64,000 nucleotides of DNA from an uncultured Acidobacteriota bacterium (GCA_963741925.1 CAVUJU010000005.1:2369447-2433446), one strand, 5' to 3'. Counted from the first letter of the stretch, positions 1,977-64,000 are shown. The notes: generated by a model from the letters alone, not told the origin. Translations and numbers: made by a program.

Positions 1977-2462
1977 CTACCCCGATCCCAGCCGTTCCGG
2001 CTTCACCACCGAGTACGGGTACTCCTCGCGGCTTCGCACCAGGCGGGCCCTGACCGGGTTGTCCAGGAGGTAAGCGACCACCGCCTCCAGGCTCTCCCGC
2101 CGGCGGACGACGTGGTCCCAGAACGAGCGCTGCCAGAGGGGCTCGCCGTATCCCGCTCTCCGGACCCGCCGGGTGGAGTAGGACTTGAAGGCCCGGACCG
2201 TCTCGATGACCCGGGCCGCGTCGTCCAGGAGCCAGTGGAGGTGGCCGGGCATGAGGCAGGCCGCGAGAGTGGCCGCGTGCTCCGCGAGGGCCTCGAAGAC
2301 CGGCAGCGCGACTCGGGGAAGGGTGAACGGCTCACCGTCACCCACGGTGCAGAGGGTGACGTGCACCGGCCGCTGGGGCGGATACAGGCCCGGCGGCAGC
2401 CGGTTGCCGCGGCTGCGGCGCCAGGTGCGGTACACGCTGCTGGCCGGGGGCGTGCGCGTCAT
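1977..2462 (-). CDS. rayT: REP-associated tyrosine transposase (RAYT; IS200/IS605-like TnpA_REP)
   Basis: HuH-like HLHWLL, and the C-terminal stretch GEPLWQRSFWDHVVRRRESLEAVVAYLLDNPVRARLV typical of RAYT/IS200 TnpA (WQxxF.DH...Y..NPV); flanked both sides by REP hairpins. Confidence 0.8.
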   Translation of the reverse strand: MTRTPPASSVYRTWRRSRGNRLPPGLYPPQRPVHVTLCTVGDGEPFTLPRVALPVFEALAEHAATLAACLMPGHLHWLLDDAARVIETVRAFKSYSTRRVRRAGYGEPLWQRSFWDHVVRRRESLEAVVAYLLDNPVRARLVRSREEYPYSVVKPERLGSG

Positions 2463-2524
2463 CTCATCCTTCAGGACGCGACGGAGCGGCGGAACCTTGC
2501 AGGTCGGCGGCGTTCGGTGCCCGC

Positions 2525-2745
2525 CGGAGGGCTCGGCCGGCCGAGACAGAGCTCGGCCGCTTCATGGGCCTGGTGAGGTGGCAACGGCGACGCCGGGTGA
2601 AGCGGCCGAGCTCTGCCTCGGCCGGGGCGGGTGGGGGAGACAGAGGTCGATCGCTTCATGGGCCTGGTGAGGTGGCAACGGCGACGCCGGGTGAAGCGGC
2701 CGAGCTCTGCCTCGGCCGGGGCGGGTGGGGGAGCGTCCGGAGGTC
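2525..2745. repeat. REP-like hairpin doublet (2 copies, ~110 bp) related to 1740-1960 (GGCCGAGCTCTGCCTCGGCC palindrome)
   Basis: direct repeat 2530-2640 / 2640-2745 with the same palindromic core; sits between the RAYT gene and the 3' end of the gvp operon. Confidence 0.75.
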
Positions 2746-2880
2746 GCCGGGGTCTCGGGCCGGCACCGAGCTCGCCGGGGCAGGGCGAAGCCGAGGCGCT
2801 CGCCGGCGTTTCACCGCCTCCGAGCGGCGCGCGCCGTGCGCAAGGGCGAAAGCCCCCGGCCCGGCGCGGCCCGGCCCGTG

Positions 2881-3640
2881 TCAGGTGAGCTTGCCGAGGG
2901 GGCCGAGGTCGAGGTTGAGGTCGCCGGGATCGAGGCCGAAGCGGGCGGCGATCTCGACCAGGGTCTCCTCGAGGCGCATCAGGGCGCGGCCGAGGCGCTC
3001 GACCTCCTCCGGCGTCAGCGTCTCCTCCTCCATGCGCCGGATCGCCTGGCGCTCCAGGAGCTGGCGGACGAAGTCCACGAGGGTCAGCACCAGGCGCGCC
3101 ACCGAGCGTTCCACGTCGTCCGGCTCCGGGTTCCAGCGGGCCACCTCGGTCGCCGGGTCGCGGCTCCGGGCCTCGAGCTCGGTGCGGAGCGCCTCGGCGT
3201 CGGCGGGCGCCACCCCGGCCCGCGGGGCGGGACCGGCGGGGGAAGGAGCGGAGGCGGTGGCCGGGGCGGGCGAGGCGACGGCCGGTGACGGCGACGGGGC
3301 GGGTTCTGCTCCCCCCGCGTCCGCCGCCTCGTCCGGCGCGCCCGGTCCGCCCGGGGCGACCGGTCCACCCGGGGCGGGCCCGGTCCCCTCGCCGTCCCGG
3401 CGGCGGAAGACCCGGTCCGCGGCGGCGAGCAGGGTCGAGAGCTTCAGGTAGATCAGGTCCACGTCGGCCAGGCCCAGGACCACGTCGCCGGTGAGCATGA
3501 CGCCGCGCTCGAGGAGCGAGTCCACCACCTCCACCAGGCGGGTATCGGCGTCCTCGAGGACGTGGGCCGTGGCCTCCCGCGTGTGGAGGGCGCCCGCGAC
3601 CCGCTCGCTGGTCCCGTTCGGGTCGCCCTCGCGGCTCACG
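2881..3640 (-). CDS. gvpJ/gvpK: gas vesicle protein GvpJ-like domain fused in frame to a GvpK-like domain (start GTG overlapping the upstream TGA)
   Basis: N-terminal LVEVVDSLLERGVMLTGDVVLGLADVDLIYLKLSTLLAAADRV (GvpA/J fold); Pro/Ala linker; C-terminal ARLVLTLVDFVRQLLERQAIRRMEE...LGRALMRLEETLVEI..LNLDLGPLGKL (GvpK signature); no stop between the two domains. Confidence 0.6.
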
Positions 3641-4403
3641 ACGCCTCCTCGCCGGCGAAGTTGTACGGCGGCCAGGGGCCGGTCAGGACCAGCTCGCACC
3701 CGGCGCCGTCGAGGGTGCGCGCCGCCGCCTCGGCCACCTCGCGAAAGGCGTCCTCGCCGTCGCGCGGCACCAGGAACGCGGCGTCGAGGAGCACGGCGCC
3801 GCCGGGCACAGGATCCTGGCGGCGGGACGCGACCGCCGCGGCGGCGAGCGCGGCGAACGCGCTCTCGACCGCCGCCGTCGTCTCGGCCGAGGGCGCCCGC
3901 CCGGCGTCGCGCAGGCGCTTCTTGCGCTCGAGGAAGGCCCGGCCGGAGGCGGCCGGCCGGGCGGCTCCGCCCGCCTCCGAGAGGACCCGGGCGCGCTCCG
4001 CGTCCCACCGCGCCCGCACCCCCCACTCCCGGCGACCGGTCACCCGGGCGAGAGCGCGGCGCACCTCGTGGCGGCGGGAGCGCACGTCCGCGAGCGCCCG
4101 CTCGTCGCTCGAGAAGAGGGTGAAGAGCTTCATCGGCAGGAGAGCGCCCGCGCCGGTGAAGTGCTCGACCAGCGCCTCGTGGGCGAGGGCCCGGTCGGAG
4201 ACCCAGGAGAGGTCCTGGAGGCGCGCCTCGATCTCGCCCGGGCCGTAGGTCTCGAGCGGGGCGCTCGCGGCGACCAGCCAGAGCCCGCCGCCCACCGCCA
4301 GGAGGCGGGGCGCCGCGGCGTCGGGAAGGCCCCGCGGGGCCCCTTCGAGCGCCGGCGGCTCGGGGTTCTCGACCAGGCAGTAGAGGTAGGTCGCCGTCGT
4401 CAT
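3636..4403 (-). CDS. gvpL: gas vesicle protein GvpF/GvpL family (copy 2)
   Basis: YLYCLV...PWPPYNF motifs; ATG overlaps the upstream stop (ATGA); the 845-aa ORF in the track is an over-extension. Confidence 0.8.
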   Translation of the reverse strand: MTTATYLYCLVENPEPPALEGAPRGLPDAAAPRLLAVGGGLWLVAASAPLETYGPGEIEARLQDLSWVSDRALAHEALVEHFTGAGALLPMKLFTLFSSDERALADVRSRRHEVRRALARVTGRREWGVRARWDAERARVLSEAGGAARPAASGRAFLERKKRLRDAGRAPSAETTAAVESAFAALAAAAVASRRQDPVPGGAVLLDAAFLVPRDGEDAFREVAEAAARTLDGAGCELVLTGPWPPYNFAGEEAS

Positions 4404-6417
4404 TCGAGGCTTGCCTCGGTCCACCGCCGGGCCCAGCGCTCGAGGGCCGCGGCGCCCCGGGGCGGGGGGTACTCGGCAGGGGCGCTCAGTATAGTGCAGC
4501 GGCAGCGCCGGCCGAGCTCCGCGAGGTGCCGGAGGGCGCCTCTCCGGGCCTCCCGGCAGCGGCGGCACGAGCCCTCCGGCAGGACGTTGGCCACCACCGC
4601 GGGAACGTGGACCTCCAGCGCCTCCAGGCGGGCGAGAAGGCGCTCGGTCTCGCGCCCGGGAAGCTCTCCCGCCCGGGTGACGGCCACGAACCGGCAGCGC
4701 GCGCGGTCGGCGAGCAGGGCCCGGAGGCGCTTGAGCGTGGCGGCGAGCTCCAGGAGGTCGCGCGCCAGGTCGCCCAGCCCGACCGCGTCCCGGTACTCGA
4801 GGAGCAGGGCGAGCAGGGCGTGGTCCCACTCGAGGGCGAGCGCGGGCATCTCGAGGAGGCGGAGGGCGTGGCCGGTGGGGGCGGTGTCCACCACCAGCAA
4901 CGGGCCGGCCGGACCGTCGCCGTCTCCGGGTCCGGCGCCGTCGAGGGCGTCGGTCAGCTCGCTCACCGCCACCAGCTCGTCGAGGCCGGGGGGCGTCGCC
5001 TCGAGGAGCCGCTCGAGGACCTCCCGCTCGAAGGGGGTGTCGATCCCCGAGCCGCCGCGGGCGAAGGCGCCGAACCCCCGCTCCAGGGCGTCGCGGTAGC
5101 GCTCCCGGCGGGCCGCGAAGCGGCCTCCGGCGTCGAGCTCCCGGGCGCGGAGCCCCTCCGGGCCGCCGGGCACCGGCCGCTCGGCGTCGCCCAGGTCCGC
5201 CTCGATCGCGTCGCCCAGGGAGTGGGCCGGGTCGGTGGAGAGGAGGACGACCCGCGAGGGCGGTGGCCCGTCGTTGCGGCCGGATCGCGCCAGGAGGAGG
5301 GCGAGGGCGGCGGCGCAGGTGGTCTTGCCGACGCCCCCTTTGCCGCCGACCAGGAGGAGCCGGAGGCCGGGAGGCGCGAGCTCGCTCAGCCAGGCGGGCG
5401 GACGTGCGGCCAGGGGCGGCGAGGGTGGCTGCGGCACCGGCTCCGGCGCCACCGGCTCGGGCGCCGGCAGGGGCCGGAGCGGAGCGCCGAGAGAGCCGCC
5501 GAGCGCGGCCAGGGCCGCCCGTCCCCGGGGCTCGGCGTCGAGCTCGGCCACGACGCGGAGGGGGAGCGTGGGGAAGGCCGCCCCGACCGTGGCCACGATC
5601 TCCGACTCGGCGCGGCGGCGGGCGGCGCACTCGGGGCAGGACGCGTCGGCGGGCAGGGGGTCCGGCGCCAGCCGGTTGACCACCAGCTCGTCGACGGTGA
5701 CGCCGGCGGCGGCGAGCGCGGCCAGGGCGTCGCGCGTCTCGGCGAGCGCCAGGGCCTCGGGCAGGAGGACCCAGACGAAGCGCGTCCGCTCCGGATCGCG
5801 GATCCGGCGGCCGATCTCTTGGGCCTCGGTCGCCACCGCCTCGGCGAGCTCGTCGGCCGCATCGGGCCGGAAGGCTCCGGTCAGGCGCCGGGCGAGCTCC
5901 TCGTGCCGGGCCGCGAAGGCCAGCAGCACGGCGGCGAAGCGCTCGAGGGCGGCGGGCATCTCGAGCAGGCGCAGGGTGTGGGCGGTAGGGGCGGTGTCGA
6001 CGATCACCCGGGTCGCGCCCGAGCCCTGGCCGAGGCGGGCGAGCTCGACCAGGCCCACCAGCTCGTCGACCCCCGGCACGGGCAGGTCGAGGAGCCGCTC
6101 GATCTCGGACGCGTCGAGGAGCGTGCCGCGCTCGGCGAGCGTCCGCAGGCCCGCGCGCCGCTCGCCGAGCCACCGGCGCCAGGCCGCTTCGGCGGCGAGC
6201 TCGGCGGCCAGGAGCCGGCCCCCGGCGCCGGGTGTGCCGGGAAGGAGCCGCGGCTCGGGGCCCAGGGGCACGTCCAGGGCGTCGCCCAGGGAGTGGGCGG
6301 GATCGGTCGAGATCACCAGCACGTCCTCGCCCGCTTCCGCGCGGGCGACGGCGGCCGCGGCGGCGAGGGTGGTCTTGCCGACGCCGCCCTTGCCGGCGAA
6401 GAAGGTATAGCGGATCA
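4400..6417 (-). CDS. ArsA/Get3-family ATPase, two tandem halves (anion-transporting / tail-anchored-protein ATPase-like)
   Basis: two P-loops, FFAGKGGVGKTT and LLLVGGKGGVGKTT; two DTAPTGH/DTAPTAH-TLRLLEMP signatures; STDPAHSLGDA x2. The first P-loop lies upstream of the first ATG and no canonical in-frame start occurs before the gvpG stop, so the start is uncertain (non-canonical CTG/ATC, or an indel). Confidence 0.7.
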
Positions 6418-6708
6418 GGGTCCCTCGTCGGGCCCGAAGCTCACCTCGGCGCCCACCACCTTCGAGGACATGGAGAGGCCCTGCCCCTCGCCCCGCTCCT
6501 CGCGGATCGAGCGCAGCCGGGCCAGGATCTCGCGCTCGGTCGCCGCGAACTCCTCGTCGCTGATCTCGCCGAGCTCGAGCCGCATCTGGGCCGCCAGGAG
6601 CTCCTGCTTCAAGTTGCCCTCGTCGTCCATCTCGGCCTCGACGGCCGCCGCCACCTTCTCGAGCACGAAGCGCAGCGGCGCGGTCAGCAGCCGGTCGATG
6701 ACGATCAC
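6415..6708 (-). CDS. gvpG: gas vesicle protein GvpG
   Basis: 97 aa, MIVIDRLLTAPLRFVLEKVAAAVEAEMDDE...ELGEISDEEFAATEREILARL matches the GvpG pattern; GTG start overlaps the gvpF stop (GTGA). Confidence 0.7.
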   Translation of the reverse strand: MIVIDRLLTAPLRFVLEKVAAAVEAEMDDEGNLKQELLAAQMRLELGEISDEEFAATEREILARLRSIREERGEGQGLSMSSKVVGAEVSFGPDEGP

Positions 6709-7571
6709 TCGTTGCCCACCGCGCGCTCGAGCTTGAGCCGGATGTTGACGAAGTTGTACGGCGGCCAGGGGCCGGTGTACTTGAAGCTCAGGTGGTCGTA
6801 GCGCCCGGCGACCTCCTTGACCCGGGCGTCGAAGTCCTCTTCGCGGTTGCGGCCGACCAGGAACGCGGCGTTGAGGATCATCTTCTCGCCGATCGGCTTG
6901 TTGGCGCGCGAGGCGACCGACACGTCGCCGAGGGAGATCATGATCTCGGAGGCCAGCTCCTCGGAGCGCTCCTGGAGCAGCGAGTCGACCAGGCGGCCGT
7001 ACTGCATCCTGGCGAAGTAGGTGGAGCCCCTCTGGGACTGGATCTCCTGGCGCAGGAGGCGGAGGTTCTCGTCCTCCTTCTCGATCTCCTGGATGATCAG
7101 ATCGGGCTCCCAGAGGACCTTGAGGCCGAACTCGAGCTTGCCCTGCATCTTCACCAACACGTCCTTGAAGGCGTCGTAGGCGCTGCGCAGGAGCTCGACG
7201 ATGTCCTCCTCGGTGCGGAAGACCGTGCCGAAGGACATGGGGATGACCGTGAACTGCTGCATCACGGTCTCGTTGACCCGCTCGTGGGCGAGCACGTTCT
7301 CCCGGGTCGGGTCGTAGACCTCGAGCGGGGTGTCGGAGGCGACCGCAGCGATGTCGCGGTAGCTCACGGTGCTCACCTCGGTGGGCTCGGAGCCGATCCC
7401 GGCGTGTCCGAAGCTGAGGTGCTCGTCGCTCTGGATGATGCAGTAGACGTACTTGCCGCTCGCCTGCGGGGCGGGACGCTCCCTCTCAGGCGAGGCTCCG
7501 GCCGCGGCGTCCGAGCGGCCGAGGGCCTCGGGCCGGCCGGTGGCCAGCGGCTCGTTCGACTGGTCGCTCAC
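6705..7571 (-). CDS. gvpF: gas vesicle protein GvpF/GvpL family (copy 1)
   Basis: KYVYCII...; C-terminal GPWPPYNF; GTG start overlaps the TGA of the upstream receiver gene. Confidence 0.85.
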   Translation of the reverse strand: MSDQSNEPLATGRPEALGRSDAAAGASPERERPAPQASGKYVYCIIQSDEHLSFGHAGIGSEPTEVSTVSYRDIAAVASDTPLEVYDPTRENVLAHERVNETVMQQFTVIPMSFGTVFRTEEDIVELLRSAYDAFKDVLVKMQGKLEFGLKVLWEPDLIIQEIEKEDENLRLLRQEIQSQRGSTYFARMQYGRLVDSLLQERSEELASEIMISLGDVSVASRANKPIGEKMILNAAFLVGRNREEDFDARVKEVAGRYDHLSFKYTGPWPPYNFVNIRLKLERAVGNE

Positions 7572-7981
7572 GATTCTCCTTTCGGCTCGTCGGCGGGTGC
7601 CGAGGACCTGCCGAGCTGGCGCCGTACCTCGCGTTCCAGCTCCTTGGGCACGACCGGCTTGGTGACCACCTCGTCACAGCCCGCGGCCAGGGCGCGGTCC
7701 CGCTCGCGCGACAGGGCGTGGGCCGTCAGGGCCACGATCTTGATGTGGCGGGTGCGCTCTTCGCTGCGCAGGAGGCGGGTCGCCTCCCAGCCGTCGACCT
7801 CGGGCAGCGACAGGTCCATCAGGATCACGTCGGGCAGGAGGTCGCGGGCCTTGGTCAGCGCCTCGGCGCCGTCCGCGGCCGTCGCCACGTCGTAGCCGCG
7901 GAAGGTCAGGTACTCGGCGCACAGCTCGCGCCCCGCGGCGAAGTCGTCGACCACCAGGACGAGCGGCTTCTCGGCGCTCAC
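7568..7981 (-). CDS. single-domain response regulator (CheY-like receiver)
   Basis: LVLVVDDF...D...LMDLSLPEVDGWE...KIVALTAHA receiver motifs; GTG start overlaps the HK stop (GTGA). Confidence 0.8.
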   Translation of the reverse strand: MSAEKPLVLVVDDFAAGRELCAEYLTFRGYDVATAADGAEALTKARDLLPDVILMDLSLPEVDGWEATRLLRSEERTRHIKIVALTAHALSRERDRALAAGCDEVVTKPVVPKELEREVRRQLGRSSAPADEPKGES

Positions 7982-10131
7982 GCGACCCCCAGGCGGCGGG
8001 GCAGCAAGAGGGTGAAGGTGGAGCCGATCCCCACGGTGCTCTCCAGAGTGATGTCTCCTCCGAGGAGGGTGGCGAGACGGCGGCAGATCGAGAGTCCCAG
8101 GCCGGTGCCGGTGTGGCCGGGCGAGTAGAAGCTCTCGCTCTGTCCGAACGCCTCGAAGATGCTCTTCTGGTTGGCCTCCGAGATCCCGATGCCGGTGTCG
8201 GTCACGGCGATCGCCACCCGGTCGGTCTCCGCATCGTACCCGGTTTCGATCGTCACCCTGCCCTCGGGCGTGAACTTCAAGGCGTTCGAGAGCAGGTTGA
8301 GGAGGATCTGTTTGACCTTCTGGCGGTCGCTGATCAGCGCCGGCATGCCCTCGCCGCCGTCGAACTCGACCCGGAGCCCGCTCGAGTGGATCAGCGACTC
8401 GGCCTCGGACCGGACTTCCCGGAAGAGCTCCTCGAGCCGGAACCGCTCGGTCCGGATCGGCATCTTGCCGGACTCGATCCGGGTCAGGTCGAGGAGGTCG
8501 TTGATGATGGTCAGCAGGTGATTGGCGTTCGAGTCGACCCGCTGGAGCTTCTCCTGCTGCGGCTCGGTGAGGTCGCCGGAGATCCCCTCGAGGAGGATCG
8601 AGGTGTAGCCGACGATGGCGTGGAGCGGGGTGCGCAGCTCGTGGGAGACGTTGGCCAGGAACTGCGACTTCATGGCCGAGGCGTGCTCGAGCTGCAGGGC
8701 CTGGCGGCGCAGCAGCTCGTTCTGGTCCGCGAGCTCGCCGGTGGCCTCGCGGATCTTCTCCTGGAGCTCCTCGGAGTGGCGCTTGACCTGCTCGTAGAGG
8801 CGCGCCTTCTCGACCGCCTCGCTCTGGTCGTGGAGGATGGTCACGACCGCCGTGTCTTGCCCCGGCTTCGAGAGGGTCTTGGCGGAGATCGCCTCCATGG
8901 GGATGGCGTCGCCGGTCCGGGGGTCGAGGAGCGAGAGCTCCTTGCGCCAGCGCAGCGAGCGCCCGGCATAGATGTTCGAGGCGAACGACGTGAACACCGC
9001 GTCGTTGGCCCGCAGGCGGCGCTCGGCCTCGAAGTCGGAGCCGTCCGCGGAGGCCGTGAACAGGCGCTCGGCGGGCGGGTTCATGAGCACGATGTTGCCC
9101 ACCGGGTCGGTCACCAGGATCGGATCGAGCACCGAGTTCAGGATCAGGTCGAGGCGGTCCCGCTCGGCGCGGGTCTCGGCCTCCGCCGCCCGCAGCCGCT
9201 GGTAGTTCTCCTCGATCTCCTCGGTGGCCCGGGAGAGGTCGGTGACGTCGCGCAGGACCGAGACCATGCCGGTCTCGGAGTGGCTGATGGGGTAGGGCGT
9301 CGTCAGCAGCTCGAAGACCAGGTCCTGGCCGTCCACCGGGTCGACCAGCAGGAGCTCGCGGCGGCTCGGCCCGCCCTCCTCGGCGTTGGTGAACAGCGAG
9401 GCGGAGAAGAGCATGTTGTTGAGCGCCACCGCCCGGCGCCGGCCCTCGCCCACCTCGTCGCCGGCCGAAAGCAGGTTGTCGGCTCCTCGGTTGGCGATCA
9501 GGATGCGCCCCTCGCCGTCGGTCAGGAGGATCGGGTCGGTGACCGCCTCGATCACCCCGCGCAACCACTCGACCTCTCGCCGGTGCCGCCGGTCGTCCTC
9601 GCGCGCCCGCCGGTACCAGAGCGAGCTGAGCCGTACGCCCAGGGCGCCGGCGGCCCAGCAGAGCATCTCGGGGTCGGGCAGCGAGCTGCCGCCGGCGGCC
9701 AGGAGCAGACCGAAGCCCGGGCCGCTCGGGTCCGTCCCGTCGTTCAGGGCCGCGGCGTAGAAGGGCGCCTCGCCCAGGGGGGTGGCCGGCGGGCGCCGCG
9801 GGCTTCCCGGCTCGGGCCGGCCGAAGGGCACCGGCTCCCGGCTCTCGAGGGCGACGACCAGCGGGTGGGTGCGCTCGGCGAGCGCCACGCGGAGGCCCTC
9901 GACCTCGCCCTCCTCCATGCCCAGGCCCACCAGCCCCTCCAGGGTCTCGCCGGCGAGGTCGACGACCGCGCACAGGCCGGCCGAGACCCCGCCGTGGCGG
10001 CTGAGCCACGCGAGGGTCCGGTCCGCGCAACGGGCCGGGTCGGACTCACCCATGAGCTCCTCGGTCAACGCGAGACGGACCCGGGCGTCGTCGGCGGGCC
10101 TTGCTTCGGGCTGGATTCGGGCGACCTCCAT
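7978..10131 (-). CDS. cytoplasmic GAF/PAS sensor histidine kinase
   Basis: H-box SHELRTPLHAIVGY; N/G boxes LLNLLSNALKFT, GTGLGLSI; upstream PAS/GAF-like segments; 717 aa. Confidence 0.85.
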   Translation of the reverse strand: MEVARIQPEARPADDARVRLALTEELMGESDPARCADRTLAWLSRHGGVSAGLCAVVDLAGETLEGLVGLGMEEGEVEGLRVALAERTHPLVVALESREPVPFGRPEPGSPRRPPATPLGEAPFYAAALNDGTDPSGPGFGLLLAAGGSSLPDPEMLCWAAGALGVRLSSLWYRRAREDDRRHRREVEWLRGVIEAVTDPILLTDGEGRILIANRGADNLLSAGDEVGEGRRRAVALNNMLFSASLFTNAEEGGPSRRELLLVDPVDGQDLVFELLTTPYPISHSETGMVSVLRDVTDLSRATEEIEENYQRLRAAEAETRAERDRLDLILNSVLDPILVTDPVGNIVLMNPPAERLFTASADGSDFEAERRLRANDAVFTSFASNIYAGRSLRWRKELSLLDPRTGDAIPMEAISAKTLSKPGQDTAVVTILHDQSEAVEKARLYEQVKRHSEELQEKIREATGELADQNELLRRQALQLEHASAMKSQFLANVSHELRTPLHAIVGYTSILLEGISGDLTEPQQEKLQRVDSNANHLLTIINDLLDLTRIESGKMPIRTERFRLEELFREVRSEAESLIHSSGLRVEFDGGEGMPALISDRQKVKQILLNLLSNALKFTPEGRVTIETGYDAETDRVAIAVTDTGIGISEANQKSIFEAFGQSESFYSPGHTGTGLGLSICRRLATLLGGDITLESTVGIGSTFTLLLPRRLGVA

Positions 10132-10161
10132 GCTCTGATCGGGTACGACGGGAAACGGTTC

Positions 10162-10494
10162 CTACCGGCGTCCACCCCCGCCGGAACCGCCGGCCTTCGC
10201 CTTGTCCCGTTTCTCGGCGGCGAGCTCGGCGCGGAGCGCGGCGTTCTCCGCTTGCAGCGCTTCCCTCGGTACGGTCTCGATGGCCGGTCGGGACACGGTC
10301 GGCACCTGGCCGACGGCCTCCGAGTACTTCAGATAGGTGTCGATCGAGGCGACCACCACCCGCGCCTCGACGGTGAGCAGGTCGATCCCCACCAGGGAGA
10401 CCCGGACCCACGCATCGATCACGATGCCCTTGTCGAGCACGCGATCGAGCACGTCGATGAGGCTGGTTCCACCCGAAGCTCTTTCAACCGGCAT
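10162..10494 (-). CDS. gvpA: gas vesicle structural protein GvpA
   Basis: [51 protein letters not shown] is the canonical GvpA core; start at the internal ATG (MPVERASGG) with an upstream AGGAGA Shine-Dalgarno. Confidence 0.9.
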
Positions 10495-10495
10495 C

Positions 10496-10894
10496 CTAGT
10501 CTCCTGTCGTTGCCTTTCCGCCCTGTTTGGCCCGGCGTCCGCTCCGTTTCGCCCGAGAGGCCGCGGTGCTTCCGGCACCTTCGCCGGCCGTCGCTTCGAG
10601 CGTGGCGAGGCGGCGCTCGAGGAGGAGCACCTGCTCGCGCAGCTCGCGGTTCTCCGAGGAGAGCCTGCGGGCGGCCATCGAGAGGTTCGGGTCGTCGCGC
10701 CACCAGTCGAGCCCGACCTCCTCCGCCTTGTCGATGGAGCAGACGAGGAGCCGGATCCGGATGGTCAACAGCTCCACCTCGGCGAGCGAGACCCGGATGT
10801 CGCCGGCGATCACCAGCCCCTTGTCGAGCACCCGGTCGAGGACGTCGACCAGGCCGCTCGTCTGGCGATAGGTGGGTTGTATCGCTCCAGCCAT
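10496..10894 (-). CDS. gvpJ: GvpA/GvpJ-family gas vesicle protein (second paralogue)
   Basis: [42 protein letters not shown] core plus a charged C-terminal tail. Confidence 0.8.
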
Positions 10895-11148
10895 CTCTCG
10901 GGACCTCGCTCGCCGGCACCATCTGGCTTCGTGTGGCCGGGATTGTGTCAGACATGCCGATCCCCGGGCCACCGATGATCGACGGGGCAGGGCCTGACTC
11001 GGCGAGTTGCTGAGGGCGCTGCACGAATCGTTCCAGCGCCCGGCGCGGCGAAATGCCCGGAATCCGGCCTCCCCACGGGCCTGGAGGCGTTCCGAAGCGG
11101 CGCTCGGACGCCGCCGCCCGGCCGGAAATGGCAGAGCCTTTGTAGGAA
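10895..11148. promoter_or_regulatory. divergent intergenic region; probable promoter for the gvp operon (minus strand) and for the GT39 gene (plus strand)
   Basis: only sizeable non-coding gap upstream of the overlap-coupled gvp gene chain. Confidence 0.35.
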
Positions 11149-12819
11149 TTGCAGGCCACCGGCGGCGCCACGGCGAGCGAGCGGCGGCTGCTAGCATCCG
11201 CTCGCTTCCGCATGCCGCCCTCTCCCGATCGCTCGCCGCCCGCTCCGCGCGACGCCCGGGGCGCCGCCGCCCTGTTCTCGGCCCTCCTGGCCGGGACGCT
11301 CCTGGTCAAGGCGCTGCTCGCCGCCGCCCTGCCCGTGCTGGGCGACGAAGCCTACGTCTTCCTCTGGGGACGCAACCTCTCCCTCGGCTACTACGACCAT
11401 CCGCCGCTCGCCGGCTGGATGGCGCACCTGCTCTTCCTCTTCGGCGACTCCCTGCCGGTGCTGCGCCTGCCTTCGATCCTCCTCTCCGCCGTCATCGCCC
11501 TCGGCATGGTCGCCCTGCTGCGGCCCTACGGCGAGACGGAGGCGTACCTCGGCGCGAGCCTCTTCCTGCTCGCGCCGGTGAACGTCCTGGGGGTGCTCAC
11601 CCTCACCGACACGCCCCTCATCCTCTTCTCGTTCCTCTCGGGCGCCGCCCTGGTCCACGCCCGGCGGCGCGGCGACCATCTCGGGTGGTACGCCCTCTCC
11701 GGGGTCTTCCTCGGGCTCGCGTTCCTCTCGAAGTACCTGGCCGTCCTGCTCGCCCTGGGCTACCTCGCCTGGTTCCTGGCGGCCCTCGCCGGGAGCGCGG
11801 CGCCGCGCCGGCGCCGGCTGGCGGCGGGCGTCGCCCTGCTGGCAGCCGGCAGCCTGCCGTTCGTCGCCTTCAACCTCTGGTGGAACGCCGGCCACTGCTG
11901 GACGAACGTGATCTTCAACCTCTACTCGCGCCACGTCGGCGAGGGGAGGAACTACTCGGTGCCGCGGAACCTGCTCTTCTACCTCGGCACGCACCTCTAC
12001 ATGGCGACCCCGCCGGTGCTCGTCGTGCTCGCCCGCCGCCGCCGCCGGCTCCGGGAGGTCCTCGCCGATCCGGTCCTGCGCCCGGCGGCGTTCCTCTTCG
12101 CCGTTCCCATGGCGGCCTTCCTGGTGCTGGCCCTGACCGCCGTCTTCGGGGCCTACTGGGTCCTCGCCTTCTACCCGTTCTTCTTCCTCCTCGTGCCGCG
12201 GGTGCTCGAACGCCGCGAGCTCGCCACGGCCTGCCGCTTCATGGCGGTCTTCACGGTGCTCCAGCTGGTGGCGGTGGGGGCGGTCCTCGCCCGGCCCCTC
12301 GAGCGCTTGCGCTCCCTCGGCTTCTACGACTCTCTGGTGACCATGGAGGCCCCGGACGAGCTCCTCCGCGACCTCGCCCCCGACCGCGGCGGCGCCCACC
12401 TGGCGGCGCCGGGCTACACCCTGGCGTCGATCCTTTCCTATCGGCTGGGCGAGACGGTGAGCGTGTTCGGCCCCGGCTCGCACTACGCCCGGGAAGACGA
12501 CCTCCTGACCGACTGGCGCACCCTGGACGGGCGAGCGGTGCTGGTGGTCTCGAAGCGGCCCTTCGAGCTCGCCCGCTACCGGCCCTACTTCCGCTCCCTC
12601 GAGCTCGGCGCCTTCGAGCTTCACGGCGCGACGATCCACCTGCTGCGGGGCGAGGGGTTCGACTACCGGGCCTACCGGGCGGGGGTCCTGCGGCCGATCC
12701 TCGAGCGCTACTACCGGCTCCCCGCCTGGCTGCCCACGACCGGCTGCTACTTCTGCGCGAGGTACTTCCCCGGCCCGGACTGCCCGTCCGGCGAGGCCTC
12801 CCGGCGGGCGACGAAGTAG
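11149..12819 (+). CDS. GT39/GT83-family membrane glycosyltransferase (ArnT/PMT-like)
   Basis: DEAYVFLWGRNLSLGYYDHPPLAGWM motif, many transmembrane segments; start may be the internal ATG at 11212. Confidence 0.75.
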   Translation: MQATGGATASERRLLASARFRMPPSPDRSPPAPRDARGAAALFSALLAGTLLVKALLAAALPVLGDEAYVFLWGRNLSLGYYDHPPLAGWMAHLLFLFGDSLPVLRLPSILLSAVIALGMVALLRPYGETEAYLGASLFLLAPVNVLGVLTLTDTPLILFSFLSGAALVHARRRGDHLGWYALSGVFLGLAFLSKYLAVLLALGYLAWFLAALAGSAAPRRRRLAAGVALLAAGSLPFVAFNLWWNAGHCWTNVIFNLYSRHVGEGRNYSVPRNLLFYLGTHLYMATPPVLVVLARRRRRLREVLADPVLRPAAFLFAVPMAAFLVLALTAVFGAYWVLAFYPFFFLLVPRVLERRELATACRFMAVFTVLQLVAVGAVLARPLERLRSLGFYDSLVTMEAPDELLRDLAPDRGGAHLAAPGYTLASILSYRLGETVSVFGPGSHYAREDDLLTDWRTLDGRAVLVVSKRPFELARYRPYFRSLELGAFELHGATIHLLRGEGFDYRAYRAGVLRPILERYYRLPAWLPTTGCYFCARYFPGPDCPSGEASRRATK

Positions 12820-13592
12820 ACCCAGGCCACCTCCACCGGCTGCGCCGGGTCGGCGTGGCGCCGGGCCTCGACCAGGACCTCCTCCCGTTGCACGGCGTCC
12901 GCTCCGGGGGCGATCCGGGCGATCATCGCCGGGATCTCCGCGAGCTCCATCAGCTCGGCCTGGGGGCCACGGTGGACGAAGCGCCGGCGCTCGACGAGGG
13001 TGAAGCCGGCCTCGGCGAGCTGGCGCCCGATCCTGCCGCTCGCGATCCGATGCGGTGCGGGGACCGTCTCCCGGCCGGCGCGGCGCGCCACGGCGCGGGC
13101 GAGGGCGACCTGGTAGGGATGGACCTCCGACGGCTCGCCGGCAAGGCGCTCGGCGGGGACGTTGAACACGAAGAGGCCGCCCTCCTCGACCAGCCCGCCG
13201 AGGGCGGCGAGCACCGGCGGCCGGGCCGGGAACTGCCAGAAGGCGGCGTTCGAGACCGCCCGGTCGAAGGGCCCCGCCGCCACCCGTTCGACCCGCGCCG
13301 CGGGGGCGACGGCGAAACGGGCGCGGGGGTCTTGCACGCGCTCGCGGGCCACCGCCACCATCGCCGCCGAGCCGTCCACGCCCACGAGCTCGGCGTCGGC
13401 CGGCAGCAGCGCCAGGCAGGCCAGGGCGGTGGCTCCTGCGCCGCACGCCAGGTCGAGGACGCGGTGGGCGCCGGCGAGCTCGGCGAGCTCGGCGAGGTAC
13501 CGGTTGAGCGCCGGGTAGATCGAACGCTCGCGGGAGAAGCTGTCGTAGATCTCGGCGTTGGCGCGGTCGGACCAGGGGGAGTCCCAGGGCAT
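12747..13592 (-). CDS. class I SAM-dependent methyltransferase
   Basis: VLDLACGAGATA motif I. Confidence 0.75.
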   Translation of the reverse strand: MPWDSPWSDRANAEIYDSFSRERSIYPALNRYLAELAELAGAHRVLDLACGAGATALACLALLPADAELVGVDGSAAMVAVARERVQDPRARFAVAPAARVERVAAGPFDRAVSNAAFWQFPARPPVLAALGGLVEEGGLFVFNVPAERLAGEPSEVHPYQVALARAVARRAGRETVPAPHRIASGRIGRQLAEAGFTLVERRRFVHRGPQAELMELAEIPAMIARIAPGADAVQREEVLVEARRHADPAQPVEVAWVYFVARREASPDGQSGPGKYLAQK

Positions 13593-13666
13593 GGGGACAG
13601 TCTCTCATCCGCCGGCCGCGCGGGCGTGGTCTCTGTCACGTACCGGCTTCAGCCCGCACCAACGGG

Positions 13667-14947
13667 TTGAGTGAGCCTCTTGCCCGGGAGCTCCCCGAGA
13701 TGAATCCGATGCCGCGCACGGCGCCGTCCCTCTCGCCTGCCGACGAGGCCGAGAGCCTCGAGACCCCGGCGTTCACCTTCGCCCGCTCCGCCCGCGCCCT
13801 CGAGCGCTCGGGGCTGCGCCAGATCATGGCCGAGGCGGTCCGCCCGGGTGTGCGCTCCTTCGCCATCGGCATGCCGGGCACCGACCTGCTGCCCGCCGCC
13901 GAGCTCCGGGCGGCGGCGGCCGAGGCCCTCGCCGCGGACCCCCGCTCCCTCCAGTACGGAGAGCCGTACGCCCCCCTCAAGCGCCGGGTGGTGGAGCTCA
14001 TGGCCTGGCGCGGCGCGCCGTGCACCGAGGAGCAGGTCTTCCTGACCGCCGGAGCGCAGCAGGGCATGGACCTCGTCGCCCGCCTGCTCCTCGACCCCGG
14101 CGACCCGGTGGTCCTCGAAGAGACGATCTACGACGGCATCCAGCTCGCCCTGGCGAGCCGCGCGCCGGAGGTGGTGCCGGTGCCCACCGCGGCGGGCTCC
14201 GGCGCCGACCTCGACGCGCTGGAGGCGCTCCTCGCGGGCGGCCTGCGCCCCCGCTTCTTCTACACCGTCCCGGTGGGCCACAACCCCCTCGGCTCGACCC
14301 TCTCGGCGCCCGCCCGGCGGCGCCTGGTGACGCTCGCCCGGCGCTACCGGATGCCGGTGGTCGAAGACGACGTCTACGGCTTCCTGAGCTACGGCGACCC
14401 GGCGCCGCCGCTGCGCGCACTCGATCCGGAGTGGGTCGTCTACCTGGGCTCGTTCTCGAAGATCGTGGCGCCGGGCCTGCGCGCCGGCTGGATGGTGGCG
14501 CCCGCCGAGCTGGTCCCCCGCCTGTCGATGGTCAAGCACGCGGGCGACGTCGACACCTGCACCTTCAGCCAGCGCGTCCTGTGCGCCTTCCTCGACCGCG
14601 GCCTGATGGCCGGTCACCTGGCCCGGCTGCGGAGCACCTACCGGGAGCGCCGCGACGCGATGCTCGGGGCGCTCGATCGCTGGTTCCCGGCCGAGGCGCG
14701 CTGGCACCCGCCGGACAGCGGCCTCTTCGTCTGGGTGGAGCTGCCCCGGCGGGTGGATACGCGGAGCCTGCTGCGTAGCGCCGTCGACGAGGCCCGGGTG
14801 GCCTTCTGCCCCGGCGACGCCTTCGCCCTCGGCGCCGCGCGCCACGGGGCCCACTGCATGCGCCTGAGCTTCGCGGACGCGACGCCCGGCGAGATCGACG
14901 AGGGGATGGAGCGCCTCGGCCGGGTGGTGGCGGCCGCCTGCCGCTGA
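13667..14947 (+). CDS. PLP-dependent aminotransferase (2-aminoadipate/MocR-type aminotransferase domain)
   Basis: fold-type I aminotransferase pattern, SFSKIVAPGLRAGW (PLP-binding lysine). Confidence 0.8.
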   Translation: MSEPLARELPEMNPMPRTAPSLSPADEAESLETPAFTFARSARALERSGLRQIMAEAVRPGVRSFAIGMPGTDLLPAAELRAAAAEALAADPRSLQYGEPYAPLKRRVVELMAWRGAPCTEEQVFLTAGAQQGMDLVARLLLDPGDPVVLEETIYDGIQLALASRAPEVVPVPTAAGSGADLDALEALLAGGLRPRFFYTVPVGHNPLGSTLSAPARRRLVTLARRYRMPVVEDDVYGFLSYGDPAPPLRALDPEWVVYLGSFSKIVAPGLRAGWMVAPAELVPRLSMVKHAGDVDTCTFSQRVLCAFLDRGLMAGHLARLRSTYRERRDAMLGALDRWFPAEARWHPPDSGLFVWVELPRRVDTRSLLRSAVDEARVAFCPGDAFALGAARHGAHCMRLSFADATPGEIDEGMERLGRVVAAACR

Positions 14948-15045
14948 CGCCGGGCCCGGCGCAGAGCCCGTGAATCGATCTCCGTCCGTCGCGAGGGGTG
15001 ATTCGGGGGCGCCCGCAGCAGGGCGGAGATGGCTTCACGAGCTCC

Positions 15046-18167: not shown

Positions 18168-18602
18168 TCAGCAGGCGATCTGCTGCTCGGGGGCGGCCGC
18201 GAGGTCCGAGCCCGAGACCAGGTCCTCGATCACCGCCACCAGCTCCTCGAGGTCGAAGGGCTTGTCGAGCATCCGGTCGGCCTGCGAGAAGTCGAGGAAG
18301 ATCCGCTCCCGGTCCGACGCCACGCCGAGGTTGCGCGCCGTCAAGAGGACGATCCTGAGGCCGGCCGGGTAGACCCCCTTCGCCTCATCCTCCCGCAGCA
18401 TGCGCGACACCCGGTAGCCGTTCTCCCGGGGCATCATCACGTCGAGCACCACCAGGTCCGGCTGGTTCGCGCGGGCCGCTCCCAGGGCTTCCACTCCGTC
18501 GCGCGCGGTCAGGACCTCGTAGCCCTCCTGCATCAGCCGGTACTTGACCGTCTCCACCACGTCGTCTTCGTCGTCCACCACCAGAATCTTGACTCCGCTC
18601 AT
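18168..18602 (-). CDS. single-domain response regulator (CheY-like)
   Basis: MSGVKILVVDDEDD...DLVVLDVMMPRENG...LTAR; own Shine-Dalgarno AAGGAGAG 5 nt upstream of the ATG. Confidence 0.8.
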   Translation of the reverse strand: MSGVKILVVDDEDDVVETVKYRLMQEGYEVLTARDGVEALGAARANQPDLVVLDVMMPRENGYRVSRMLREDEAKGVYPAGLRIVLLTARNLGVASDRERIFLDFSQADRMLDKPFDLEELVAVIEDLVSGSDLAAAPEQQIAC

Positions 18603-18605
18603 CAG

Positions 18606-18950
18606 TCTCTCCTTCTCGGTTTCGGTTGGCGTCCCGGCCCGCCTCCGGGGCGGCCGCCGCCGGCAGGCAGGTTGCGACGAGCTCCCGGCCCGACTCGCCG
18701 TCGTCCGGGAAGACGGCGGGCCCCAGGACGCGGGGCGGCGGCACCACGACTCCGTCGCTGCGGATCGCGGTCTCGGCCAGGCGCCGTTCGAGCCGGCGCC
18801 GGACGATCTCGGTGCCCTCCCGCGGCGTGGCCAGGAGGACCAGGACCAGGCGGCGGTGGGCCGGCTGGACGGTGAACAGGTCGCAGTCGCGGGGCAGGAC
18901 CTGGCGCAGGTCGTCGCGGACCGCGAGCAGCACCGAGAGGAGGCTCTCGG
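18606..18950 (-). other. ~115-codon segment with strong coding signal in the -1 frame relative to the HK body and the RR (ESLLSVLLAVRDDLRQVLPRDCDLFTVQPAHRRLVLVLLATPREGTEIVRRRLERRLAE...). Either an HK C-terminal extension or a small gene disrupted by indels
   Basis: third-codon-position G/C bias switches frame at the CGCCCGAG C-run; no start or stop at the junction. Confidence 0.4.
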
Positions 18951-20519
18951 GCGGGCGAGGGGCGCGAGCTTCGCCTCGGCGGTGCTCCAGCCGACCACCA
19001 GGAGGCCGAAGAACGGGTACTTCCGGTGCTCCCGGATCTCGCTCTCGAAGGCGACCGCTTCGTGGGCCCGGGCCAGGTCGGCCGGCAGGCGCACGAGGAA
19101 GCGGCTGCCGAGGCCCTCGGCGCTGGTCACGGAGAGGTCGCCGCCGTGGGCCCGCACCCTCTCCCGGGCGATCGAGAGGCCGAGGCCGGTGCCCCGGACC
19201 GTGCGGGTGAGGCAGTCCTCGGCCTGGTAGAAGGGCTCGAAGATCCGCCGGCGGTGCTCGCGGGAGATGCCCGGCCCGGTGTCCGAGACCGCGAGCTCGG
19301 CCCACCCGCCGTGGCGCCGGACGCCGACCTCGACGCGCCCGCCCGCCGGCGTGAGCTTGAGGGCGTTCGATACCAGGTTGGTGACCACCTGGGCGAGCCG
19401 CTGCGGGTCGGCGAGGACGGTGGGCGTCGGCCGGTCGAGCGCCAGGTCGAGCGTCACCGAGGAGGCCTCGGCCTGCGGGACGAAGGTGGCGCGGAGGTCG
19501 TCGAGGAGCCCGGCGAGGGGCACCGGCTCGAAGCGGTACTCGAGCTTCCCCGCCTCGATCTTCGACAGGTCGAGGAGGTCGTCGATGATCACCGCCAAGC
19601 GCTCGACGTTCCTCCGGGCCATGGCGAGGAACCGCTTCTGGGGCTCGGCGAGCGCTCCGGTCTGCTCGCGCCGGACCAGGTCGATCGAGCTCTTGATCGA
19701 GGTCAGCGGGGTGCGCAGCTCGTGCGACACGGTGGAGACGAAGGCGCTCTTGAGCTCGGAGAGCTTGGCCAGCTCCCGGTTCGCGTGCTGGAGCCGGCCC
19801 TCGACCCGGCGCCGCTCCTCGACCTCTTCCTCGAGGCGGCGGTTGGCGAGCTCCAGGCCGACGCGCACCTCCTCCAGGCGGCGCACGGCCTCGGCCTCGG
19901 AGTGGGCCCGGTTCTGCTCCCGGCGCACCCGGTCGACCAGGTAGCCGTAGAACGAGGCGACGGCGAACAGGAAGGGGATCCGGATGAGCGAAGCGGTGGT
20001 GAGGACGCCGCTCGCCCCCGACGTCGACAGGCCGTAGAGGTAGGCCGAGCAGACGACGACGGAGCCCAGGGCGATGAGCGCCAGGCTCTCGCCGATGGCG
20101 GCGAGGAAGAGGACGAAGAAGTAGAGGTAGAAGAACTCGGTGCCGAAGTGGCGGGTCAGGATCAGGGCGGTGGTGATCCACGCCCTGTCGGCCACCAGCA
20201 CTCCGGCGGTGAAGGGGCGGCTCCCGAGCCAGCGTGCGGGAAGCCTGGCGATCGCCACGTTCGAGGCGATCGCCAGGACGATGAGCGCGGTGAGCCCCGT
20301 CGAGAGCCCGGAGAACCCGGTCTCCGAGAGCACCATGTAGGAGGTCGCGATGATCAGGGTGAAGCGCAGCAGGACGAAGGCGTGGCCCCGGCTGCGGAGG
20401 GCCTGGCTGGATCCCCCCCGGAACCCCTCGACCCCCGTCCCGCCCCCGGGGGGCGAAGGGGATGCCCCCTCCCCGTCGCGATCGGGGCGTCGCTGGTTGC
20501 CCTCGGTCTCTTGGTCCAT
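18950..20519 (-). CDS. membrane sensor histidine kinase (multi-TM N-terminus + HisKA + HATPase_c); 3' end unresolved because of a frame break
   Basis: H-box SHELRTPLTSIK; N/G boxes VTNLVSNALKLT, GTGLGLSIARE; GC3 signal leaves this frame near 18950. Confidence 0.75.
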
Positions 20520-53409: not shown

Positions 53410-53580
53410 GCGCATGGTCCGGATGTCCGCACTACGGATCGCGACACGAGGTCTCGTCGCGGCCCTACGTACACTTCGCGTATACTGCTCAGTGGCATCT
53501 TCGGTACCTTGGGATGATGCGCCGGCCGGGCAGCTCTCCGCTTCCCGGCGCCGGCGGCAGCTTCGAGAGGAGGCCGAAAC

Positions 53581-58701: not shown

Positions 58702-59648
58702 TCCTTTTGGCGTGCGTCTTGCTGCCCACCCGGCCGGCTTGCGCCGAAGACACCCAGAGCCTACGGCTCGAGCTCATCCTCCCCTCGACAACGGTGCCCC
58801 TCGGCGAGCCCTTCATCATCCGAGCCGTCCTGCTCAACGAGTCAACCGCCCCGGTGCGGGTCGCCCCTGTCTTCTTCCTCTCGCATGACAACCTCGAGTT
58901 GCAGCTAACCGATGCCGAAGGCGACAGCGTTGATGCGCCGAGCGGTGCGATCGAGGTCTGTGGCCGCGTGAACCGCGACTGGCTGATTCTTCTCGGCGCC
59001 CGCGAGCTCATCGGCGCGGACTTCAAGATCTCTCCCACACTCCCCGATAGCCTGAATTACATCTACGGGCTGCGGGCGGGCTGCTACACCTTCTCTGCCA
59101 TATTCCATCTCCACGACTTCGCGGACTGCCTCAATGCCCAGGCTGTACCCACTCCAGCGCCGGTACACGGTCCTGTCGCCTCCGAGCCGCAGAAGCTTTG
59201 CTTCGGCCCCCCCCTGCCAGAGCGGGTCACGGAGTTCCGAAACAAGCTCAGCTCGGGTCAATTGGACCAAGTCATCGAAGGACTCCTCTATTTCTCCAAC
59301 GTCGCTGATCCACGGGCAAGTGCCGAGATCCGCTCGCTCCTTGGTGCCGCCGAAGGCTGGCAATCTCGCTTCGTGGACCAGTTCCACGCCCTGACAGCCT
59401 TGCGCCGTCAGCGAGACCCCGCCAATGCACCCTACTTTCGAGAGGCGCTGCATGGTCGCTTCTCCGCACTCGCCGCCAAGGCTCTCCAGGAGGTCCGGGT
59501 TTCTCCCTCCACTTCCGCCAATCCGAACCGCTACCGTGACCGGGGCACGGAGCCCAACGCCAGTAGGAATTCATGCAGCTACGACTACCATGCAGGATTT
59601 CGGAGCGCTCTTGGACCTACCTCTGCGCCGATCACCTGGAGGCGCTAG
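58689..59648 (+). CDS. secreted candidate immunity protein for the Rhs toxin tip
   Basis: ATG lies inside the rhs stop region; signal peptide; paralogue of 63104-63895. Confidence 0.55.
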   Translation: MRVLVLLACVLLPTRPACAEDTQSLRLELILPSTTVPLGEPFIIRAVLLNESTAPVRVAPVFFLSHDNLELQLTDAEGDSVDAPSGAIEVCGRVNRDWLILLGARELIGADFKISPTLPDSLNYIYGLRAGCYTFSAIFHLHDFADCLNAQAVPTPAPVHGPVASEPQKLCFGPPLPERVTEFRNKLSSGQLDQVIEGLLYFSNVADPRASAEIRSLLGAAEGWQSRFVDQFHALTALRRQRDPANAPYFREALHGRFSALAAKALQEVRVSPSTSANPNRYRDRGTEPNASRNSCSYDYHAGFRSALGPTSAPITWRR

Positions 59649-59666
59649 CCGTGGCCGCCAACCGGG

Positions 59667-61234: not shown

Positions 61235-61259
61235 AGCCAACGGCCACGGGGCACAGATA

Positions 61260-63895: not shown

Positions 63896-64000
63896 GACAG
63901 ACGGCTTCCTCCTACGGAGCCGACCAGCGAAGCACCTGGCACCTCCAGGGCGCGGCCTCGAGGAGAACTCCAGCTACGACTCGACGATCGGCAAGCTCGT

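Follow-up and report, generated by a model that had tools for sequence, protein, structure and literature searches.

This report concerns a two-component system that lies inside a gas-vesicle (gvp) operon of an uncultured Acidobacteriota bacterium, in a stretch of 64,000 nucleotides (GCA_963741925.1, CAVUJU010000005.1:2369447-2433446) that is called the window hereafter. Genes of the window are on its minus strand unless a plus sign is given. A single compact operon runs from 10894 down to 2881 and encodes, in this order, a GvpJ-like protein, GvpA, a sensor histidine kinase (HK), a stand-alone receiver or response regulator (RR), GvpF, GvpG, an ArsA-like ATPase, a GvpL/F protein and a GvpS-GvpK fusion. 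Genes were assigned with Pfam and NCBIfam and, because the window is about 72% GC, third-position GC was used for telling them from spurious open reading frames (ORFs). An earlier note on this DNA had placed a kinase and a stand-alone receiver between gvpA and gvpF at 7568-10131, and this interval corresponds exactly to the two genes, HK at 7978-10131 (717 aa; assigned by Pfam and homologue alignment) and RR at 7568-7981 (137 aa; Pfam Response_reg). The flanking genes are genuine as well: gvpA (10162-10494), for the major structural protein of the vesicle, matches Pfam Gas_vesicle at 1.2e-16 and belongs to the NCBIfam GvpA subfamily with 113.8 bits against a cutoff of 100, and gvpF (6705-7571, GTG start) matches Pfam GvpL_GvpF at 3.9e-76. 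Taken together, Pfam and NCBIfam find the core of a gvp cluster in GvpA, two GvpL_GvpF genes, GvpG, GvpK and three further Gas_vesicle ORFs or domains.

The kinase is soluble and has the architecture GAF-PAS-PAS-HisKA-HATPase_c. We take the ATG at 10131 as its true start because 117 homologues align from there. No transmembrane segment was found in the protein (the highest 19-residue Kyte-Doolittle mean is 1.31) and, for want of any hydrophobic segment, it is placed in the cytoplasm, which agrees with the earlier description of a cytoplasmic kinase with GAF and PAS sensors. Pfam recognizes PAS at residues 190-296 (9244-9564; 7.3e-11), PAS_8 at 326-369, in a second PAS domain that spans residues ~326-440 (8812-9156), HisKA, the dimerisation and phospho-acceptor domain, at 487-555 (8467-8673; 5.2e-22) and the catalytic HATPase_c domain at 602-712 (7996-8328; 4.1e-28). 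Residues 1-188 (9568-10131) have no Pfam match in the window protein and gave nothing significant against the PDB by sequence profile, so that only fold comparison identified a GAF domain there: an AlphaFold2 model made from 20 homologues (pLDDT 91.5) returned, by Foldseek against the PDB, top matches that are all GAF domains, with probability 1.0 and TM scores of 0.65-0.72. Two of nine HK homologues also match GAF_2 (E = 6e-6).

Within this GAF domain C35, W42 and H89-P90-L91 are invariant, and one may speculate that Cys35 and His89-Pro-Leu bind a cofactor or serve in redox sensing. No assignment to heme, flavin, bilin or LOV, all of which were considered, could be made for the kinase. The first PAS domain has no LOV-type cysteine, and the order GAF-PAS-PAS differs from the PAS-GAF-PHY layout of phytochromes. 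The first PAS domain holds the invariant motif R-R-A-x-x-L-N-N-M-L-F and the second N-D-A-V-F-T-S-F. The second domain and the linker that precedes it are among the most conserved parts of the kinase (block identity 0.85-0.86 over residues 301-360, against 0.89 for the H-box block), and this conservation, on a par with that of the H-box region, suggests that a ligand or partner protein has been conserved as well. The catalytic half is intact: the H-box S-H-E-L-R-T-P-L, with His497 encoded at 8643-8641, is at least 95% conserved over the 117 homologues, and the N, G1 and G2 boxes of HATPase_c are kept (LLNLLSNALKFT, DTGIGI and GTGLGL). The kinase has more than 4,500 homologues; nearly all of the best 120 extend over its full length, with 60-72% identity, and they come mostly from metagenome-assembled genomes of Thermoanaerobaculia. 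The profile of the GAF domain is more selective: among 1.84 billion representative proteins it matches only 348, in each case N-terminally, and full-length members measure 711-724 aa. This N-terminal domain appears, from such profile matches, to be found in this kinase family only. NCBIfam holds no curated family that reaches its cutoff for HK or RR, and its matches cover only the generic catalytic core or receiver.

The receiver consists of Pfam Response_reg (residues 8-119, 9.1e-25) and no other domain. In an alignment of 49 sequences, from 48 related loci and the window, D13 and D56 of the acceptor pocket do not vary; position 12 carries D except for a single E, and position 86 carries T except for a single S (48 of 49 each). 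The phospho-acceptor Asp56 is encoded at 7816-7814 and the K-P motif reads V-T-K-P in the window. Receiver length is 126-142 aa in all loci but one frameshifted outlier (L043). Apparent natural fusions of RR to GvpF or of HK to RR (L043, L070) were discarded as assembly errors, internal frameshifts having split the gene into several matches in different frames. These intact catalytic and acceptor residues predict a catalytically competent kinase and a cognate, phosphorylatable receiver, and we infer phosphotransfer between the two. Having no output domain, the receiver could signal only through contact with another protein, a conclusion that the earlier note had drawn from the missing DNA-binding domain and that we consider very probable. 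Stand-alone receivers such as DivK work in this way. By sequence, the nearest solved structures are PleD Rec1 (E = 5e-27) and DivK (5e-20), and the intact acceptor pocket likens RR to the single or leading receivers of the DivJ/PleC-DivK and PleD systems of Caulobacter and of CheA-CheY, which act by protein contacts. The likeness goes no further: the NCBIfam equivalogs DivJ, PleD and others are far under their cutoffs for HK and RR, the scan of the cluster and of flanking ORFs showed no che gene, partners for chemotaxis or the cell cycle are missing from the vicinity, and HK, with its GAF-PAS-PAS sensors, belongs to the class I HisKA kinases and not to the CheA class.

The junctions of the pair tie it to the operon, although less symmetrically than had been claimed. 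The stop of HK and the start of RR share a GTGA overlap at 7981-7978, and the stop of RR and the start of gvpF another one at 7571-7568, with AAGGAGA just before it. The earlier note had seen such overlaps on both flanks, but this holds on the gvpF side only, since 30 nt (10132-10161, read directly) separate the gvpA stop (10164-10162) from the ATG of HK and nothing overlaps there. Across related loci the usual gap between gvpA and HK is about 3 nt (median), and HK and RR overlap by 4 nt in 55 of 79 loci. Shine-Dalgarno sequences are strong before gvpA and gvpF and weak or absent before HK, which would fit a low-abundance regulator within a structural operon. As for the operon's own signals, no sigma-70 promoter-like or terminator-like site was found in 2000-11600, a scan that is uninformative at 72% GC, and the Rfam search for riboswitches and leaders returned as its sole match a chance miRNA (E = 0.6). 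For a single transcript, and for the post-transcriptional control that the earlier note thought possible, the tight spacing and the lack of such sites would be indirect evidence at most. Many Thermoanaerobaculia loci (L006, L018, L020, L038 and others) carry, about 60-120 nt 5' of gvpJ, a non-coding block, TATGGTAGCAGG...CTCTTGCATTGAAC-N17-TAGGAT, which looks like a sigma-70-type promoter (TTGAAC-N17-TAGGAT) with a conserved box upstream. The leaders of the window and of its closest genome (L004) differ from this block.

To follow the pair beyond the window, one genome per species was scanned with an alignment of the sensor half of HK only, because generic kinase matches were to be avoided. 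Relatives were found in 256 species, and the best 80 loci were analysed by searching all cluster proteins of the window against them. In all 80 the genes lie on one strand in the order gvpJ-gvpA-HK-RR-gvpF-gvpG-(arsA)-gvpL-gvpS-(gvpF/L)-gvpK, in agreement with database gene calls in metagenome contigs, and the recurrence of this order is far beyond chance. With one metagenome contig (of three such contigs, two duplicate L013 and L038 and were counted once) and four highly divergent family members, the most divergent full-length ones that could be looked up, the set comes to 85 distinct loci, and the kinase stands within a gvp cluster in every one of them. RR follows HK directly wherever the contig reaches, with a single exception (L087). 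The loci come from Thermoanaerobaculia, Holophagales and Vicinamibacterales among the Acidobacteriota, from Methylomirabilota/Rokubacteria, from Polyangia and other Myxococcota, and from one Phycisphaeraceae bin, and the source organisms are represented by metagenome-assembled genomes only. Pairwise distances of HK track those of GvpF (r = 0.95) and of RR (r = 0.91), which argues that the pair evolved with the cluster as one unit; some 80 sequences are too few for inter-protein covariation. That the two genes are passengers, which landed in the operon and have nothing to do with gas vesicles, might be imagined from the ArsA-like gene, which shows that accessory genes come and go in this cluster. 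Such a reading is effectively refuted by adjacency to gvp genes in 85 of 85 loci from several phyla, the most divergent members included, by a GAF sensor domain found in this kinase family only, and by the conservation of the catalytic and acceptor residues as well as of the translational coupling. We have little doubt that HK and RR form a two-component system dedicated to gas vesicles, and the link proposed in the earlier note stands on firmer ground than it did.

Adjacency, common orientation, the GTGA overlap and the distance correlation of 0.91 all mark HK and RR as a cognate pair, and they bear on a further possibility, namely that RR only takes up phosphate as a sink, or modulates its own kinase allosterically, and that the true output passes through an unlinked regulator served by the same HK. 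Stand-alone receivers can play such parts, as CheY2 does in Sinorhizobium and as DivK does on DivJ and PleC, and RR resembles DivK in sequence. Yet the 4-nt overlap in most loci together with the correlation designates RR as the cognate partner, and no alternative partner is conserved nearby, so that we regard this role as improbable. About as improbable is a signal that leaves the vesicles altogether, in which HK would report vesicle or buoyancy state, or the same cue, to motility, adhesion or the cell cycle through a CheY-like RR, with no control over vesicles. RR is indeed a stand-alone receiver of the CheY/DivK type, co-expression with gvpA would confine the signal to cells that form vesicles, the highly conserved PAS domains would fit the binding of a conserved partner such as a Gvp protein, and in Serratia flotation is regulated jointly with motility (PMC6617781). 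Against it, no motility, pilus or cell-cycle genes are conserved beside the cluster, and the target would itself need to be conserved across several phyla.

Whether the pair may be called inserted, as it was in the earlier note, depends on a comparison with clusters that lack it. A plasmid cluster of Streptomyces sp. NBC_00984, found with GvpF, reads gvpO-like, gvpA, gvpF, gvpG, gvpJ-like, gvpL/F, gvpS, gvpK, and actinomycete-type gvpO-A-F-G-J-L-S-K clusters, which also occur in soil organisms, share the backbone and order A-F-G...L-S-K with the window and likewise have no gvpN. In Streptomyces gvpF begins 3 nt after gvpA and there is no kinase, receiver or ArsA-like ATPase; the window differs by HK-RR at the junction of gvpA and gvpF, by arsA after gvpG and by a gvpJ-like gene in place of gvpO at the 5' end. 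Inserted is a fair term because a cluster of the same backbone has gvpF only 3 nt after gvpA. A tblastn search of the 64-kb window and of 83 related loci, with GvpN and GvpO from Octadecabacter as queries, gave no match to either protein. The AAA+ ATPase GvpN is part of most characterised gvp clusters; since actinomycete clusters do without it too, we read its absence from these sequences as the mark of a subtype, not as a reason to exclude the locus from gvp clusters.

Other kinases and receivers were met around these clusters. Loci of Methylomirabilota/Rokubacteria (L073, at 4767-7862 and 13464-15023; also L068, L075, L076 and L079) have extra hybrid kinases, one of the type MASE1-GAF-GAF-HisKA-HATPase-REC just 5' of the cluster and a membrane-bound DUF4118-HisKA-HATPase-REC protein between gvpF and gvpG, and two loci (L002, L019) have an additional stand-alone receiver after gvpK. 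These extra proteins suggest a multi-kinase network around the same cluster. In the window, the second receiver protein assumed by the earlier note exists as a domain but not as a separate response regulator: the only other receiver domain is the C-terminal REC of an unrelated hybrid kinase of 783 aa (18168-20519), 7 kb upstream of the operon, which has HisKA and HATPase_c domains and an N-terminal 250 aa with no assignment. The closest genome shows a kinase- or receiver-like match at a comparable upstream position, which is not general across the family.

It is tempting to hypothesize how such a self-accompanied cluster might be controlled. The soluble kinase would sense a cue inside the cell with its GAF domain, which is specific to the family, and its two highly conserved PAS domains. 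It would autophosphorylate at His497 and then phosphorylate the receiver, to which it is translationally coupled, at Asp56, and phosphorylated RR, which has no output domain, would bind another protein. This partner would most likely be encoded by the cluster, as a GvpF/L-type or other assembly factor, and the module would gate the nucleation or assembly of vesicles after the operon has been transcribed, not by switching its promoter. We prefer a cluster-encoded partner and a gating of assembly because the cluster genes encode no DNA-binding regulator and no histidine phosphotransfer (Hpt) protein in any lineage examined, because a circuit that is kept intact across phyla is most easily understood as self-contained, because the HK and RR genes lie 3' of gvpA and would be made only once the operon is transcribed, and because the PAS domains with their linker rank among the most conserved parts of the kinase. 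That the target of RR is a cluster-encoded assembly protein is a tentative proposal. The whole chain, a gas-vesicle two-component module that is built into the gvp operon and acts on such a protein, comes close to an even chance in our estimation without quite reaching it. In a more specific form, which we consider possible but rather unlikely, the module would be a self-contained phospho-checkpoint in which RR, phosphorylated or not, permits or prevents assembly by binding to a GvpF/L-type nucleation factor, to GvpG or to the ArsA-like ATPase, in answer to an intracellular cue read by HK.

The main rival takes the receiver in another direction, as a Spo0F-like relay or hub that gathers phosphate from HK, and in some lineages also from extra hybrid kinases, and sends it through an unlinked Hpt protein or other partner to a DNA-binding regulator of the gvp promoter, with positive autoregulation as the outcome. 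The extra hybrid kinases in or next to the Methylomirabilota clusters and the receivers after gvpK in L002 and L019 would suit a relay, and the TTGAAC-N17-TAGGAT element before gvpJ in many Thermoanaerobaculia loci might be a regulated promoter. Known gas-vesicle regulators, moreover, act on transcription (PMC4982088). Against this stand the cluster genes of the loci examined, with neither an Hpt protein nor a DNA-binding regulator among them, the retention of the pair with its cluster across phyla, which is awkward if it were to depend on host-specific unlinked factors, and the position of HK-RR 3' of gvpA, by which the pair is produced only when the operon is already on. We hold the relay to be a serious alternative, if an unlikely one.

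The nearest precedent for regulators of this kind lies in Serratia sp. ATCC 39006, whose second gvp operon carries gvrA, gvrB and gvrC, which are needed for vesicle formation and are co-transcribed with some of the gvp genes (PMC4982088, PMC6617781). These regulators act on transcription, GvrA as an NtrC-like protein that activates the sigma-54 promoter at gvpA1 (PMC4982088). The likeness, shared by other proteobacterial gvp loci, is that regulatory genes are interleaved with gvp genes; the differences are that Serratia uses a second operon and a sigma-54 activator, whereas here there is one operon, with the pair between gvpA and gvpF and an RR with no output domain. No NtrC-like sigma-54 activator was found among the cluster genes of the window or in the related loci annotated with Pfam, and the sigma-54 pattern TGG[CT][AC]-N6-[TC]TGC does not occur 5' of gvpJ in the window, nor does it in 61 of the 64 related loci. 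A promoter of the Serratia type before gvpJ was rejected as a general feature on these counts, three loci matching the pattern and the window not being among them. The earlier note had called the Serratia gvr regulators comparable in being embedded in a gvp locus and differently organised, which is correct, but the resemblance is one of functional analogy and not of membership because there is neither a GvrA-type activator among the cluster genes scanned nor a general sigma-54 promoter.

Several observations weigh against the preferred reading. In haloarchaea GvpE and GvpD regulate gas vesicles mainly at transcription; of GvpD it is said, reportedly in a 2012 review by Pfeifer, that it acts at the protein level on another protein. 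To our knowledge there is no cultured organism that has a cluster of this type and in which vesicles have been observed. In L087 the RR gene is upstream of gvpJ, and the coupling of RR to gvpF is not obligatory. The mirror-tree correlation may come from shared inheritance alone, and the hybrid kinases of Rokubacteria/Methylomirabilota resemble a multi-kinase relay that converges on RR and could carry the signal outside the cluster. Finally, the Serratia regulators GvrA, GvrB and GvrC act on gvpA1, which is again mainly transcriptional (PMC4982088). The comparison with haloarchaea is itself a loose one. The regulators of their vac region are cluster-encoded, as HK and RR are, and gvpE is annotated as adjoining gvpF on the Halobacterium plasmids matched in our search. 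Nevertheless GvpD and GvpE belong to unrelated families (a P-loop repressor and a bZIP-like activator), use no phosphotransfer and are archaeal.

The remaining genes of the operon are tightly packed as well. The first one (10496-10894) encodes a small GvpJ/M-like gas-vesicle protein that matches Pfam Gas_vesicle at 5.4e-17 and the NCBIfam GvpJ and GvpA models under their cutoffs, and a homologue of it stands upstream of gvpA in the related loci long enough to show it; gvpA follows after a gap of 1 nt, with AGGAG as Shine-Dalgarno sequence 5' of its start. The gvpG gene (6415-6708; Pfam GvpG 1.7e-16) overlaps gvpF by 4 nt. It is followed by the gene for the two-domain ArsA/GET3-like ATPase (4400-6418, start uncertain; Pfam ArsA_ATPase 3.2e-77), whose stop overlaps the start of a second gvpL/F paralogue as ATGA (3636-4403; Pfam GvpL_GvpF 1.9e-41), and the gvpL stop in turn overlaps the start of the gvpS-gvpK fusion as GTGA (2881-3639; Pfam Gas_vesicle 4.7e-09 and GvpK 2.4e-30), the last gene of the operon. 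In the fusion a small GvpA-like domain is joined by a Pro/Ala-rich linker to GvpK, and the third gvpF/L that most related clusters have between the two is missing. An uninterrupted fusion also occurs in L004 (16648-17295) and L065 (16796-17437), and because two other genomes have it we do not attribute it to a sequencing error.

The start of arsA deserves a separate word. The ArsA-like gene, missing from at least nine related loci, gives 316 bits with TIGR00345, aligned from residue 6 if translation begins at 6418. Its frame has no ATG, GTG or TTG between the preceding in-frame stop (~6790) and a GTG at 6322 (window 6322-6418), and the conserved strand and P-loop (LIRYTFFAGKGGVGKTT) start right at the gvpG stop, before any canonical start. 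A likely though uncertain candidate is the CTG at 6418-6416, which overlaps the TGA stop of gvpG. A canonical start is missing as well in 26 of about 52 related loci (L002, L004-L006, L008, L010, L013, L019, L021, L023, L024, L033, L034, L038, L040, L049, L053-L058, L062, L065, L066 and L070). Near-cognate codons overlap the gvpG stop by 4 nt as CTGA in the window and L065, as ATAG or ATAA after GGAGGAG in eight loci and as GTAG in three, which suggests that arsA may be expressed by termination-reinitiation on non-canonical start codons. A programmed frameshift that would join GvpG to ArsA was judged unlikely, as the two frames differ by +1 in part of the loci but by -1 in others.

Around the operon, two arrays of REP-like palindromes with arms of 28-57 nt lie at 1731-1973 and 2509-2719 (units CCGGCCGAGACAGAGCTCGGCCGCTTCA and TGAAGCGGCCGAGCTC), and the ORF between them (1977-2561) has a weak match to IS200-like Y1 transposases (E = 2.8e-4, under the Pfam cutoff). 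Directly 3' of the gvp operon there is what looks like a REP element with its associated tyrosine transposase (RAYT), judging from the repeats and this match, and the hairpins may serve the operon as a terminator. On the other side, a gene for a PMT_2-family glycosyltransferase (11149-12819, +) is divergent from the operon and overlaps at its 3' end, by about 70 nt, a convergent methyltransferase gene (12747-13592); in many related loci an amidohydrolase gene is divergent from gvpJ instead. The last 6 kb of the window (58000-64000) have a GC content of only 0.61-0.64, down from about 0.72, and a strongly negative GC skew; the drop falls within an ORF of 1,728 codons (53518-58701, +) or just after it, and this end may be foreign DNA.

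An ArsA homologue in gvp clusters had been reported for the acidobacterium Ellin345, cyanobacteria and others (Castillo and Saier 2010, PMC2963123); those clusters have a two-domain ArsA, as here, and neither a kinase nor a response regulator is mentioned there. Our literature search found this link of ArsA to gvp (PMC2963123) and the Serratia gvr genes, and no description of a kinase/receiver pair in gvp clusters of the acidobacterial type. The conserved arrangement of an HK and RR embedded among gvp genes is apparently undescribed, the known kinds that it touches being gas-vesicle regulation from within the cluster and signalling by stand-alone receivers. If the receiver does act on assembly proteins, phosphorylation would directly control a protein-shelled organelle, and gas vesicles would provide the first example of a two-component system that works directly on their assembly instead of on gvp transcription. 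For the identification of the signal, the conserved GAF domain, which is specific to this family, and the highly conserved PAS domains offer a defined target. Gas vesicles serve as acoustic reporter genes, and a compact phospho-switch borne by the cluster would be an attractive control element for such reporters; as the whole circuit travels with its cluster it could, if the reading holds, become a portable switch for engineered vesicles. The regulation of gas vesicles is understood in a few aquatic models only, namely haloarchaea, cyanobacteria and Serratia. The loci gathered here define a widespread class of gvp clusters, with relatives in 256 species genomes, so far of uncultured organisms only, mostly Thermoanaerobaculia and other Acidobacteriota, Rokubacteria and Myxococcota. 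As this class always comes with its own sensor kinase and receiver-only regulator, the building of vesicles in these bacteria is apparently decided by a cue that is sensed inside the cell.

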